In this document: piece by piece, positions 1,101 to 52,099 of the stretch
How the letters are laid out: each line of letters begins with the position of its first letter
How positions within the stretch are numbered: position 1 is the stretch's first letter
Assembly (NCBI GenBank): GCA_021469345.1
Contig: GCA_021469345.1_3049.1
DNA from: a phage
DNA: 64,000 nucleotides
Strand: one strand, 5' to 3'
Notes under the pieces: model-generated
Databases searched by the model: none
What the model saw: only the letters and a program-made list of their open reading frames with translations
Told to the model about the DNA's origin: nothing
Translations under genes and position numbers: made by a program

Positions 1101-1108
1101 TATAAATA
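1101..1108 (+). promoter_or_regulatory. T4-type late promoter core TATAAATA
   Basis: exact TATAAATA about 28 nt upstream of ATG 1137. Confidence 0.5.
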
Positions 1109-1136: not shown

Positions 1137-1418
1137 ATGAAAACTTATGCTCAATTTTTAATGACCGAAGCATCCGCTTCAGATGTTCGCGCTGTAGCAA
1201 CTGCTGCTATTAAAGCTGGTAAATATTCTTATAAAGATGCTTCTGACGAATCTCGGTACAAGTTCTATGACGATATGAGAGCTGAAGGCTTTGTGGGTAA
1301 CTATGTTACCACCGCCTGGAAAAGCCTGGTTGCTACTGGTGCGGCTTTCGAAAAACCTTCTGGTAAACCTGCTCCTAAGGCTGACCCTAAAGCAGCACAA
1401 GAAAAAAAATATTGCTAA
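1137..1418 (+). CDS. internal-protein-like protein with capsid-targeting-like N-terminus (MKTYAQFLMTE); probably the 5' part of a frameshift-interrupted gene
   Basis: ATG with AGGAA SD; N-terminus resembles T4 internal-protein CTS MKTYQEFIAE; ends just after an A8 run (1402-1409). Confidence 0.55.
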   Translation: MKTYAQFLMTEASASDVRAVATAAIKAGKYSYKDASDESRYKFYDDMRAEGFVGNYVTTAWKSLVATGAAFEKPSGKPAPKADPKAAQEKKYC

Positions 1419-6158: not shown

Positions 6159-6632
6159 ATGAAAACATATCAAGAATTTATTACTGAAGCAGCTATTAAT
6201 TCTCAAATTATTGCTGAATCTTTTACTGATCTTTTGAAATTTAAAAAAGGCCAAAAAATCACTGCTGTATTGGATGATGGTACAGAAGTTGAGATGGATG
6301 TACAAGGATATAATTATGCAGTAGATGGAAAACTGTATAATAAATCTCATGCTAAATTTGATTCATTTGACGACTTTGTTAATACAGTTGAAGATGAAAA
6401 AACTCGTCGATCCATTGCAACTGGTGATGCTAAGGTTCTTATGGCACATGGTCATGAACGCATTCGCGCTAAACAGAATAAAATGGGTGAAGATAATTTT
6501 GCATTAGTTGGTTATCAATCTGGTAAACAAACCTATGGTTATCAGCGTACTGCTACCATGTATAATAAAAATGGTAAAATTGCCTTTGTGAATAGTAAGG
6601 GTTCTATTCAGTACGTTAAATCGTTCAAATAA
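6159..6632 (+). CDS. internal protein (ipIII-like) with capsid targeting sequence MKTYQEFITEA
   Basis: N-terminus matches T4 internal-protein CTS including gp21-type I-x-E cleavage context; position after e. Confidence 0.65.
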   Translation: MKTYQEFITEAAINSQIIAESFTDLLKFKKGQKITAVLDDGTEVEMDVQGYNYAVDGKLYNKSHAKFDSFDDFVNTVEDEKTRRSIATGDAKVLMAHGHERIRAKQNKMGEDNFALVGYQSGKQTYGYQRTATMYNKNGKIAFVNSKGSIQYVKSFK

Positions 6633-50072: not shown

Positions 50073-50705
50073 ATGATTTATTATATGCACAAAAATCCAC
50101 CGTTTAAATACGGTAAATTTCCTGATGCACAATGTTATAATATAACGCCTGATGAAAATAACCGTGGATATCTTATTGGCACAATTTTTGTAATTGTTAA
50201 AGATAACGAAATCGTTGCCTGGGCAGATTTTAAAGGTACAACACATGATGTTAATCCGGTGCCTTTCACATATTACAATATAATGGATTTGGCATATGAT
50301 TATAATTGGTTTAATCATGACAATTTAGTTCATATTGAAGGCGTAGGATTTGACATCTCTTATTCTAGTTATTCGTTGTGCCCTATGAGCCGAGCTTATA
50401 AAGAGCCTGAATATTTTTCATTTCGTCGGCGTGTAGACTTTAAACGCAGTACAGAGTATGTCGGTGGAATCTTTGTTAAAGATAATCGAATTACTCGCAT
50501 TATTTATCCTTTGGGCTTTGGTCAAAAAGATATTGATGTTGATTTAGACTTTACTGAAAACAGCATTAATCATATTGCTTCTGTGTATTTTGATATTGAT
50601 CACAAAATTGTAATATGTGGATATGAATTACCATCCGAAAAACAGTCTAAAGTAAATGTTTCTATTGATGACCAAATTTTTAATGCTTTTATGAATAGAG
50701 GTTAA
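50073..50705 (+). CDS. hypothetical protein (61.2 position, 210 aa)
   Basis: trimmed from GTG 50064 to ATG 50073. Confidence 0.55.
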   Translation: MIYYMHKNPPFKYGKFPDAQCYNITPDENNRGYLIGTIFVIVKDNEIVAWADFKGTTHDVNPVPFTYYNIMDLAYDYNWFNHDNLVHIEGVGFDISYSSYSLCPMSRAYKEPEYFSFRRRVDFKRSTEYVGGIFVKDNRITRIIYPLGFGQKDIDVDLDFTENSINHIASVYFDIDHKIVICGYELPSEKQSKVNVSIDDQIFNAFMNRG

Positions 50706-50706
50706 T

Positions 50707-50871
50707 ATGAAAACATTTAAAGAATTTATCAAAGAAGATATGGTCGCTGGAGATTCAGGTGGTAATCCTGAAAATATCTCTACTGGAACAACATCAGGTG
50801 CTGTAGTAAATAAAGGTCCTGAACAGATTCCTAAAAAGAAAAAAGAGGAATCTAAAGAAAAAGAAGAGTAA
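50707..50871 (+). CDS. small protein with capsid-targeting-like N-terminus MKTFKEFIKE (54 aa)
   Basis: ATG 50707; N-terminus resembles internal-protein CTS with I-x-E cleavage context; Lys/Glu-rich tail. Confidence 0.45.
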   Translation: MKTFKEFIKEDMVAGDSGGNPENISTGTTSGAVVNKGPEQIPKKKKEESKEKEE

Positions 50872-50873
50872 AA

Positions 50874-51902
50874 ATGTCATCAATACCTTGGATTGATAAT
50901 GAGTTTGCATACCGTGCATTAGCTCATTTACCTAAATTCACACAAGTAAATAATAGTTCAACTTTTAAATTGCGGTTTAGATGCCCAGTGTGTGGAGATT
51001 CAAAAACCGACCAAAATAAAGCCCGTGGATGGTATTATGGTGATAATAATGAAGGAAATATTCATTGTTATAACTGTAACTATCATGCACCAATCGGAAT
51101 ATATTTAAAGGAGTTTGAACCTGATTTATATCGTGAGTATATCTTTGAAATAAGAAAAGAAAAAGGTAAAAGTCGTCCAGTAGAAAAACCTAAAGAACTT
51201 CCTAAACAACCTGAGAAGAAAATAATTAAATCTCTTCCGTCATGTGTTCGATTAGATAAACTGGCGGAAGACCATGCAATTATAAAATATATAAAAGCTC
51301 GTTGTATTCCAAAGGATAAATGGAAATATCTTTGGTTTACAACTGAATGGCCTAAATTAGTTAATAGCATAGCACCGGGAACATATAAAAAGGAAATACC
51401 TGAGCCTCGTCTTGTTATTCCAATTTATAATGCTAATGGAAAAGCTGAGTCTTTTCAAGGACGTGCATTAAAGAAAGATGCTCCTCAAAAATATATCACC
51501 ATCAAAGCTTATCCTGAGGCAACAAAAATCTATGGAGTCGAACGAGTTAAAGATGGTGATGTATATGTTCTAGAAGGACCTATAGATTCACTTTTTATTG
51601 AAAATGGTATAGCTATTACGGGCGGTCAATTAGACCTAGAAGTTGTTCCATTTAAAGATAGACGTGTGTGGGTTTTAGATAATGAACCTCGTCATCCTGA
51701 CACTATTAAGCGAATGACTAAATTAGTTGATGCAGGAGAAAGGGTTATGTTTTGGGATAAATCTCCCTGGAAATCAAAAGATGTTAATGATATGATTAGA
51801 AAGGAAGGTGCAACCCCTGAACAAATTATGGAATATATGAAAAATAATATTGCCCAGGGGTTAATGGCTAAAATGCGGTTATCTAAATATGCTAAGATTT
51901 AA
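50874..51902 (+). CDS. 61: DNA primase gp61 (342 aa)
   Basis: zinc-ribbon CPVCGD...CYNC and TOPRIM region; size and position as T4. Confidence 0.9.
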   Translation: MSSIPWIDNEFAYRALAHLPKFTQVNNSSTFKLRFRCPVCGDSKTDQNKARGWYYGDNNEGNIHCYNCNYHAPIGIYLKEFEPDLYREYIFEIRKEKGKSRPVEKPKELPKQPEKKIIKSLPSCVRLDKLAEDHAIIKYIKARCIPKDKWKYLWFTTEWPKLVNSIAPGTYKKEIPEPRLVIPIYNANGKAESFQGRALKKDAPQKYITIKAYPEATKIYGVERVKDGDVYVLEGPIDSLFIENGIAITGGQLDLEVVPFKDRRVWVLDNEPRHPDTIKRMTKLVDAGERVMFWDKSPWKSKDVNDMIRKEGATPEQIMEYMKNNIAQGLMAKMRLSKYAKI

Positions 51903-52099
51903 ATTAACCCAACTAAAGCAAATGCTAAATCTACAAATGTATCAAGAGTAACTACTGGAATACTAACGCCATGAGCAATAGCAACTGGCGATAAAACAAA
52001 ATTCCAAAGTAAAATTCCTACCATAGCAGAAATAGTAAAAGCTATACGCTTTTTATTACCTTTGATGGCATTAACAAGTGCCATTAATTTTTGTACCAT
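51899..52099 (-). CDS. small hydrophobic membrane protein (66 aa), antisense to flanking genes
   Basis: ORF track; AAGGAGG SD 4 nt before ATG on minus strand; GATAAATA late-promoter-like element upstream; two predicted TM helices. Confidence 0.5.
   Translation of the reverse strand: MVQKLMALVNAIKGNKKRIAFTISAMVGILLWNFVLSPVAIAHGVSIPVVTLDTFVDLAFALVGLI

Follow-up and report, generated by a model that had tools for sequence, protein, structure and literature searches.

Gene 61.1 of a T4-like phage encodes a small paralog of the maturation-site segment of gp23, the major capsid protein

Results

Gene 61.1 and its locus

The DNA analyzed here is a stretch of 64,000 nucleotides, referred to as the window, from phage contig GCA_021469345.1_3049.1 (GenBank assembly GCA_021469345.1), and the subject of this study is the ortholog of T4 gene 61.1 located on its plus strand at positions 50707–50871 (54 codons and a stop codon, the latter included in the end coordinate of the open reading frame [ORF]). 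The window belongs to a T4-like phage of the genus Tequatrovirus, and its 41–61 region is approximately 96% to 97% identical to that of SG1, PE37, and similar phages. The gene order in the window is 41, dmd, 61.4, sp, 61.2, 61.1, 61, and dam. The TAA codon of gene 61.2 occupies positions 50703–50705, with the ATG of 61.1 one base downstream; a Shine–Dalgarno sequence read from the sequence, GAGG (50698–50701, plus strand), ends 5 nt before this ATG. The stop codon of 61.1 is followed, after 2 nt, by the ATG of the primase gene 61. As described below, gp61.1 combines an N-terminus resembling the capsid-targeting sequence (CTS) of T4 internal proteins with a segment that is homologous to the region around the site at which gp23, the major capsid protein, is cleaved in maturation.

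The window protein is identical to T4 gp61.1 (NC_000866, 18966–19130) in 53 of 54 residues and matches the family profiles phrog_1823 (E 6.8e-34, residues 1–54) and phrog_2086 (E 2.1e-16, profile positions 108–154). Three parts can be distinguished, all on the plus strand: (i) the CTS-like decapeptide MKTFKEFIKE (50707–50736), with a predicted site for the prohead protease gp21, I-K-E↓D, that would be cut after codon 10; (ii) an N-fist-like module, D11–P38 (DMVAGDSGGNPENISTGTTSGAVVNKGP; 50737–50820), recognized by its similarity to gp23 in phmmer and hhalign comparisons; and (iii) a charged tail (EQIPKKKKEESKEKEE; 50821–50868), taken from a table of the family in which a Lys/Arg run follows the module in almost all homologs. 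A Pfam search with the protein matched no family, and an Rfam search of positions 50300–51100 yielded no match and no sign of an RNA element behind the conservation. Gene 61.1 of T4 is listed as a “hypothetical protein.” We found no discussion of the function of gp61.1 in the searchable literature, the hints being automated names only (“major capsid domain-containing protein”).

CTS-like N-termini in the window

The first-pass annotation of this DNA had pointed to three proteins with CTS-like N-termini, encoded by ORFs starting at 6159, 1137, and 50707, the last being gene 61.1. All three were found on the plus strand at these positions with the N-termini as quoted, and the window gene order bears out that the third lies in the 61.x region, outside the internal-protein (ip) loci. 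When all ATG-started ORFs of at least 20 residues on both strands were scored for identity to the T4 CTS, MKTYQEFIAE, the three reached 9/10 (ORF 6159), 7/10 (ORF 50707), and 5/10 (ORF 1137). Because the other 1,098 ATG-started ORFs did not exceed 4/10, a score attained by 10 of them, the resemblance is real and not a matter of chance.

Positions 4 and 7 of the CTS are reported to be critical for targeting and positions 8 and 10 for processing (Mullaney & Black 1996, per PMC9026906). All four are kept in gp61.1, as Phe4 (Tyr in IPIII), Phe7, Ile8, and Glu10. The (L/I)-x-E processing motif named in the first-pass annotation is present as the candidate site I8-K9-E10, and cleavage after Glu10 would leave a Gly/Ser/Lys/Glu-rich product of the anticipated size, namely 44 residues with six Gly, four Ser, seven Lys, and seven Glu.

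gp61.1 is homologous to the N-terminal arm of gp23

A phmmer search with gp61.1 against all Protein Data Bank (PDB) sequences matched a single family, gp23, at residues 58–94 (E 0.0039), the homologous part of gp61.1 being residues 3–39. Comparison of an alignment of the 61.1 family with an alignment of gp23 N-termini using hhalign gave a probability of 98.5% (E 3.3e-15, 43 columns). A hidden Markov model of the 61.1 family scored 49 to 53 bits on six gp23 proteins (from T4, a Mosigvirus, Marfa, a Klebsiella phage, an Aeromonas phage, and KVP40), compared with 8 bits for the next-best ORF in the window. The alignment of gp61.1 with gp23 is gapless in all six phage pairs, from T4 to KVP40, and the identity following the cleavage site is 14/28 in T4 and 14 to 18 of 28 across the pairs; in these comparisons, the gp23 closest to most 61.1 sequences is that of KVP40.

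In the T4 alignment, AFGSFLTE↓AEIGGDHGYNATNIAAGQTSGAVTQIGP of gp23 is paired with TFKEFIKE↓DMVAGDSGGNPENISTGTTSGAVVNKGP of gp61.1, where the arrow marks the gp21 cut of gp23 after Glu65. The gp23 octapeptide before the cut carries the key CTS residues (F-x-x-F-L-x-E) and is the counterpart of the CTS-like start of gp61.1. The record for the KVP40 capsid protein annotates the mature peptide from residue 63, which follows L-N-E and corresponds to the aligned position.

The 25 residues that follow the cut in gp23* form the N-fist, which contacts four subunits in two capsomers (PMC9958956). In the unexpanded head, gp23 residues 66–105 are disordered and point inward, probably touching the scaffolding core, and after expansion they shift outward and help form the Soc site; the substitutions A66D, A94V, and G97S alter head length (PMC9546572). 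Judged from the alignments, gp61.1 is a free-standing paralog of the gp23 maturation site and N-fist, extended by a charged tail. An HK97-fold body is absent from its 54 residues, and the similarity is limited to gp23 57–99. This relationship was overlooked in the first-pass annotation: by the same alignments, the 44-residue “payload” is not arbitrary cargo. Several 61.1 homologs are called “major capsid protein” in GenBank (Roth80, Cronus, Minot, Ec_Makalu_003, and W115), and UniRef uses the name “Major capsid domain-containing protein.” The GenBank labels stem from the N-fist similarity and, with no HK97-fold body present, are a propagated misannotation.

A homology that spans 43 columns reaches far beyond what a protease site needs, and it raises the possibility that gp61.1 is never packaged but acts in the cytoplasm as a mimic of gp23. 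Made before gp23, gp61.1 would be a competitor of gp23 N-termini for a shared partner (the scaffold gp22, the gp21 zymogen, the gp20/gp40 initiator, or a chaperone) and so tune the timing or fidelity of head assembly (head length, polyheads), or it would plug vacant N-fist sockets from outside. The three head-length substitutions fall in the gp23 segment concerned, and the probable contact of that segment with the core also fits such a role. We regard a cytoplasmic mimic as a serious but doubtful candidate, for reasons that emerge from the family-wide comparison below.

Two decoy functions based on the gp23 similarity were considered and rejected. One concerned Lit/Gol; the Gol region, which we take to be approximately gp23 93–122, begins where the similarity to gp61.1 stops. 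The other concerned CmdTAC; titrating CmdC would activate the system and not block it, and the region of gp23 bound by CmdC is not defined (PMC11618068).

Family architectures and constraint

Searches with tblastn located 61.1 in at least 1,439 phage records, including phages of Escherichia, Klebsiella, Acinetobacter, Aeromonas, and Vibrio, and the family extends across the Straboviridae. A profile search of 1.84 billion representative proteins returned 53 members with two architectures. The short form has 50 to 70 residues, whereas the long form has approximately 125 to 165 residues, with the module placed C-terminally behind a conserved, helical N-domain of approximately 100 residues (pattern F..W.A.K.GIID..G...K.P.T..EK..Y..FH..VR..K). 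In most genera, the long form takes the place of the short N-terminus; it is present in 609 records, corresponds to the annotated gp61.1 of Aeh1 and RB43, and includes the proteins of Mosigvirus, Bragavirus, Ceceduovirus, and KVP40. Short forms are found in Tequatrovirus, Dhakavirus (MKSFKEVMNE↓DM), Jiaodavirus (MKTYKEFVTE↓M), Krischvirus (MIGFKQFVEENKLKE↓DM), and Marfavirus (MTLLDQYKQSLSE↓M). The module is disordered (predicted local distance difference test [pLDDT] <50) in the AlphaFold model of one long form. The idea that the N-domain of the long form is a copy of the gp23 delta-domain was discarded (hhalign probability 0.07%).

The module is under strong purifying selection: the ratio of nonsynonymous to synonymous substitution rates (dN/dS) is 0.06 to 0.2 within T-even-like genera, where synonymous sites are near saturation, and rises to about 0.5 in the most distant pairs. 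The first-pass annotation had seen in gp61.1 an anti-defense payload, that is, a packaged peptide injected with the DNA to block a host defense, as IPI blocks GmrSD. The CTS-like N-terminus and cleavage site are indeed present, the gene is dispensable on laboratory hosts, and there is precedent for unrelated CTS proteins with anti-restriction activity, since Bas37_0260, which shares only the N-terminal signal with IPI–III, inhibits McrBC (bioRxiv 10.1101/2025.11.20.689424). However, internal-protein loci are hypervariable and patchy, whereas 61.1 is syntenic, nearly universal in the Straboviridae from coliphages to vibriophages, and strongly constrained, and its conserved part copies a capsid segment and offers no inhibitor fold. 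In addition, the main text of a multi-host T4 screen does not feature 61.1, and one host comparison was not significant (bioRxiv 10.1101/2025.11.20.689424). An anti-defense payload is therefore quite unlikely; what stands of the internal-protein-like interpretation is the CTS resemblance together with the conserved Glu at the site (see below).

In every genus examined, 61.1 lies upstream of primase gene 61, either directly or within two small genes. A comparable position was seen in T4, Aeh1, RB43, Marfa, AS-yj, TP13, KVP40, JS98, Mineola, Makalu_003, PM2, and phi1_146007, the simplest order being 40-41-61.1-61 in Aeh1. The presence of gene 40, a head-assembly gene, in the same cluster would suit a cytoplasmic mimic of gp23. 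The synteny could also be taken to mean that gp61.1 is a primosome-linked peptide with a role in replication or primase expression, its similarity to gp23 being the relic of a partial duplication. Such a role would agree with the upstream position, which extends to the distant Sinorhizobium phage phiN3, with the Lys/Arg-rich tail and the early RNA (see below), and with a stop codon only 2 nt before the ATG of gene 61. The close spacing is, however, not conserved: gaps of 38 to 150 nt separate 61.1 from 61 in JS98, Mineola, TP13, Aeh1, AS-yj, KVP40, and RB43, and in Makalu_003 and phi1_146007 the two genes are separated by other small genes. A relic would not hold 14 to 18 of 28 N-fist positions and the cleavage-site Glu at a dN/dS of about 0.1, and 61.1 differs from gene 61 in the consequences of its disruption, as described later. 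We consider the primosome explanation very unlikely.

At the edge of the family, phiN3 gp354 has the N-domain, the tripeptide I-V-E, a degenerate module, and a basic tail. The Sinorhizobium phages phiN3, phiM12, phiM7, and phiM19 carry a 61.1-like gene two genes 5′ of the primase, without the AGDSGG...TSG motif (phiN3 183122–186328). Either the N-domain and the synteny predate the N-fist-like module or the module decayed in these phages. To see whether this protein copies the capsid protein of its own phage, the phiN3 and phiM12 genomes were searched by tblastn with the basic tail of gp354, which revealed no second locus. No cyanophages were among the organisms listed for the 61.1 matches, and gp23 of cyanophage P-SSM4 is without the GDHGY...IAxGxTSG motif.

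Variation was also seen at the C-terminal end. In the metagenomic sequences P0036, P0052, and P0054, the Lys-rich tail leads into a second CTS-like motif (NFKQFVE, DFKQFVE, and GFKAFME) and then a further domain of approximately 100 residues, an arrangement like that of a small polyprotein carrying two sites of the protease type. No match in cultured phages was obtained for the additional C-terminal domain of the fused forms of 240 to 250 residues (P0036 and P0052). Among KVP40 gp61.1 (1501–1977 of the stretch retrieved), P0038, P0055, P0059, and P0064, several end in K-x-F-x-x-[FYW] after the basic tail (examples being KKFRHFD, KTFDEFVKGS, KSFLEFDSK, and MSFSEWVES); therefore, the CTS-like amphipathic peptide can be C-terminal.

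The cleavage site and the targeting peptide across the family

All 69 family members examined have Glu at the position aligned with gp23 Glu65, and the P3 position is occupied by Leu, Ile, Val, Met, or Phe in 64 of them. Since the sequences before this Glu otherwise differ, its conservation would seem to be readily explained only by a gp21-type site or by binding to the same partner. To describe the N-termini, we searched for the CTS-like motif [KRNSTG]-[FY]-x-x-[FYWLV]-hydrophobic. Among 37 short forms, 25 had it at the N-terminus, where shuffling gave an expectation of 0.26, and three others that have no N-terminal copy had it after the module; in contrast, none of 36 long forms had it within the 25 residues before the module, and two had it after the module (related sequences are among those counted, and the counts do not represent independent events). 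Hence, the CTS-like peptide and the N-domain look nearly mutually exclusive and apparently interchangeable, and the family-wide motif has the appearance expected of a portable docking peptide. A cytoplasmic mimic of gp23 leaves unexplained both the cleavage-type Glu with its hydrophobic P3 residue and the replacement of the N-domain by a CTS-like motif.

The ortholog comparison on which the internal-protein-like interpretation depends gave a divided picture. The CTS-like N-terminus is kept in some short forms (Tequatrovirus and, as MKTYKEFVTE, Jiaodavirus), weakened in Dhakavirus, present as a variant in Krischvirus (MIGFKQFVEE...), and absent from Marfavirus and all long forms; orthologs without it come from Mosigvirus, Pseudotevenvirus, Bragavirus, Cinqassovirus, Ceceduovirus, and Schizotequatrovirus. 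A tblastn search with a 20-mer from the Krischvirus start matched 61.1 alone, although this is an insensitive test.

At the DNA level, the first 30 nt of 61.1 and ORF 6159 are identical at 25 positions. The 61.1 codons ATG-AAA-ACA-TTT-AAA-GAA also align with AAA-GAA-ATA-TTT-AAA-GAA in a Mosigvirus long form (protein ...QKEIFKELPLFE↓DMV). Because of this alignment with the long-form linker, the FKE...E core is best read as inherited from that linker and not acquired as a CTS, with the Met-Lys-Thr of gp61.1 having arisen, on the same reading, through point changes that brought it closer to the CTS consensus. We also considered gene conversion from an ip gene and dismissed it; these 61.1 nucleotides can likewise be aligned with the linker of the TP13 long form, and descent plus convergence suffice.

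Expression, detection, and dispensability in T4

In a time-resolved omics study of T4, 61.1 RNA belongs to the early class, as is the case for ipI, ipII, ipIII, and gene 40, which combine early RNA with late protein (PMC9697503 supplements). As these genes show the same behavior, the early 61.1 RNA does not argue against packaging; it would also be expected of a mimic made ahead of gp23. A scan for sigma-70 promoters for 61.1 gave results not above chance. In a HIDEN-SEQ study, 61.1 tolerated insertions at 13 of 13 sites, whereas genes 67 and 68 were essential and gene 61 was classed as “Intermediate” (bioRxiv 10.1101/2025.11.20.689424), a difference that speaks against the primosome explanation. 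Knock-down of 61.1 by CRISPRi-ART was scored “Not Fit” (PMC11879866). Gene 61.1 is thus non-essential in T4, as the internal proteins are, and as a fidelity factor of the kind envisaged for a cytoplasmic mimic would be; for the latter, no phenotype is known.

Other features of the window

The two other CTS-bearing ORFs are ordinary members of this class. ORF 6159 (6159–6632, plus strand) lies directly 3′ of the lysozyme gene e, which is the ipIII position, and begins with MKTYQEFITE↓A; it matches phrog_3155, “internal virion protein” (E 6e-102), and Pfam DUF7412 (E 5.7e-96). ORF 1137 (1137–1418, plus strand) is a late gene of phrog_2280 that adjoins the tRNA region and begins with MKTYAQFLMTEA (MKTYAQFLMTE↓A). 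A T4-type late promoter, TATAAATA (1101–1108, plus strand), has its last base 29 nt before the ATG, and the same box is found 34 to 44 nt 5′ of the ATG in three orthologs. Ortholog N-termini are MKSYAQFLNE (RB18), MKTYNEFLTE (WG01), and MKFKEFLAE (KP1). ORF 1137 is shortened by an extra A in a poly-A run at approximately 1402–1409 (A8 here, A7 in RB18); its orthologs, which exceed 120 residues in the stretches retrieved, read on in the frame of ORF 1291–1599, and the phrog_2280 profile has 178 positions. Possible explanations of the shortening are a genuine frameshift or pseudogene, an error in sequencing, or slippage. All 93 residues are covered by the best match in the databases (Pu-Krd-SF4), and the variant may thus be shared.

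ARAGORN detected a single tRNA (Arg-tct, 679–754) between segB and ORF 1137. Positions 836–1113 contain short overlapping ORFs only and are possibly the counterpart of the small stable RNAs found in the tRNA region of T4. In JS98, five ORFs with MKTY[QKN]EF[IL]xE occur within 30 kb (55001–85000; orf112, orf114, ipIII, orf135, and one that is unannotated), and one of them adjoins the tRNA cluster, as ORF 1137 does in the window. The tRNA-proximal site looks like a regular internal-protein locus in T-even relatives.

In the 61–dam gap, the minus strand carries a hydrophobic ORF of 66 residues (51899–52099) that shares 4 nt with the 3′ end of gene 61. Annotated counterparts on the minus strand exist in Lutter (where a late-promoter feature is also given), Marfa, and O157 typing phage 13, and the corresponding 309-nt gap of T4 carries no annotation.

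Discussion

From the features described previously, we infer that gp61.1 may enter the prohead, be cleaved there, and act as a mature peptide. We tentatively propose, with a confidence somewhat short of even, that it is a paralog of the gp23 N-arm which docks in the prohead, is cleaved by gp21, and functions in the structure or assembly of the head. Synthesized from early transcripts, like IPI–III and gp40, gp61.1 would dock on the assembling scaffolding core through its CTS-like peptide or, in other genera, through the helical domain of approximately 100 residues. The gp23-like segment may add to docking, since its counterpart in gp23 is turned toward the core while the head is still a prohead. 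gp21 would then cut after Glu10, in register with gp23 Glu65, and the product would be an intrinsically disordered peptide of 44 residues (DMVAGDSGG...KGP and the charged tail). Such a product would begin at Asp11 (DMVAGDSGGNPENISIGTTSGAVVNK), whereas uncut gp61.1 would yield MKTFKEFIKEDMVAGD.... The mature peptide could, for example, occupy or compete for gp23 N-arm sites, and it would not be a variable anti-defense effector.

A more specific version, which we think unlikely, is that the 44-residue peptide folds onto the capsid lattice like the N-fist of gp23* and fills empty sockets at the portal vertex or next to gp24 pentons, these sockets being empty because a hexamer borders a capsomer that is unable to supply an N-fist. 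Alternatively, such a peptide would compete with gp23 N-arms for the scaffold and thereby set head geometry.

Several observations weigh against prohead docking and cleavage of gp61.1. In the whole-cell time course of T4, the protein went undetected (“NA”; PMC9697503 supplements), and neither the text nor the supplements of a mass-spectrometry paper on T4 heads mention it (PMC5694885). Unlike ORF 1137, 61.1 has no late promoter TATAAATA on its 5′ side, where there are only badly placed variants with one mismatch. No phage-specific covariation of 61.1 with gp23 was found in the six pairs, a result that also disfavors a cytoplasmic mimic. The location of 61.1 between 41 and 61 could point to a replication role. 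In JS98, gp61.1 starts with MKSFKEVMNE, although five internal-protein-like ORFs of this phage, two of them annotated as internal proteins, have MKTY.EF[IL].E; the Marfa protein starts with MTLLDQYKQSLSE, which is not CTS-like. The apparent descent of the FKE...E core from a long-form linker and the relatedness of the sequences behind the motif counts belong here as well.

If gp61.1 is docked and cut by gp21, it would be a conserved, non-essential new component of the T4 head. It would also follow that a CTS can replace a folded docking domain, which is relevant to the use of T4 heads as protein-delivery vehicles. If gp61.1 is instead a capsid mimic, this would be the unusual situation of a viral structural protein whose assembly arm is also encoded separately. 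Should the free-standing N-fist exist, an unrecognized capsid-associated component would be encoded in the replication cluster of essentially all Straboviridae, and its docking propeptide would have alternated in evolution between a domain of 100 residues and a CTS of 10 residues. Head assembly in T4 ranks with the most thoroughly studied pathways of morphogenesis, yet 61.1 is uncharacterized; the present analysis also corrects a recurring GenBank misannotation.

Among known systems, gp61.1 resembles IPI, IPII, and IPIII in its decapeptide (MKT[YF]xEF[IL]xE), with the residues for targeting (4 and 7) and processing (8 and 10) and the (L/I)-x-E site, and in its early RNA class and dispensability on laboratory hosts. 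It differs in that its mature part would be a conserved copy of a gp23 segment, whereas those of the internal proteins are variable, basic, and globular. Furthermore, 61.1 is fixed in the 41–61 replication cluster without a late promoter and not in a hyperplastic ip locus, most of its orthologs have a domain of approximately 100 residues in the place of the CTS, and its packaging is putative.

The N-terminus of gp24 and the proteins gp67 and gp68 are comparable as short propeptides or peptides that are removed by gp21 inside the prohead, and residues 11–20 of gp24* reach the neighboring hexamer after expansion, comparable to the role of the N-arm. Unlike 61.1, however, the genes for these proteins are late genes of the head cluster, there is no sequence similarity, and gp67 and gp68 are essential. 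A further parallel is offered by adenovirus pre-Mu (pX) and pVII, small and basic proteins whose packaged precursors the virion protease then trims. This is an analogy only, to an unrelated virus with an unrelated protease and sequence, and it illustrates the mechanism without being evidence for it.

The closest relative is gp23 itself. gp61.1 lacks its HK97 body and its Gol region, has GDSGG where gp23 has GDHGY, and carries a Lys/Arg run at the place of AVMGMVRR. With gp23 57–99, it shares the gapless pattern hydrophobic-x-E↓xx[IV]xGDxG(x5)IAxGxx[ST]Gx[IV]xxxGP, a segment that, in both proteins, is disordered or predicted to be so unless locked into the expanded lattice.

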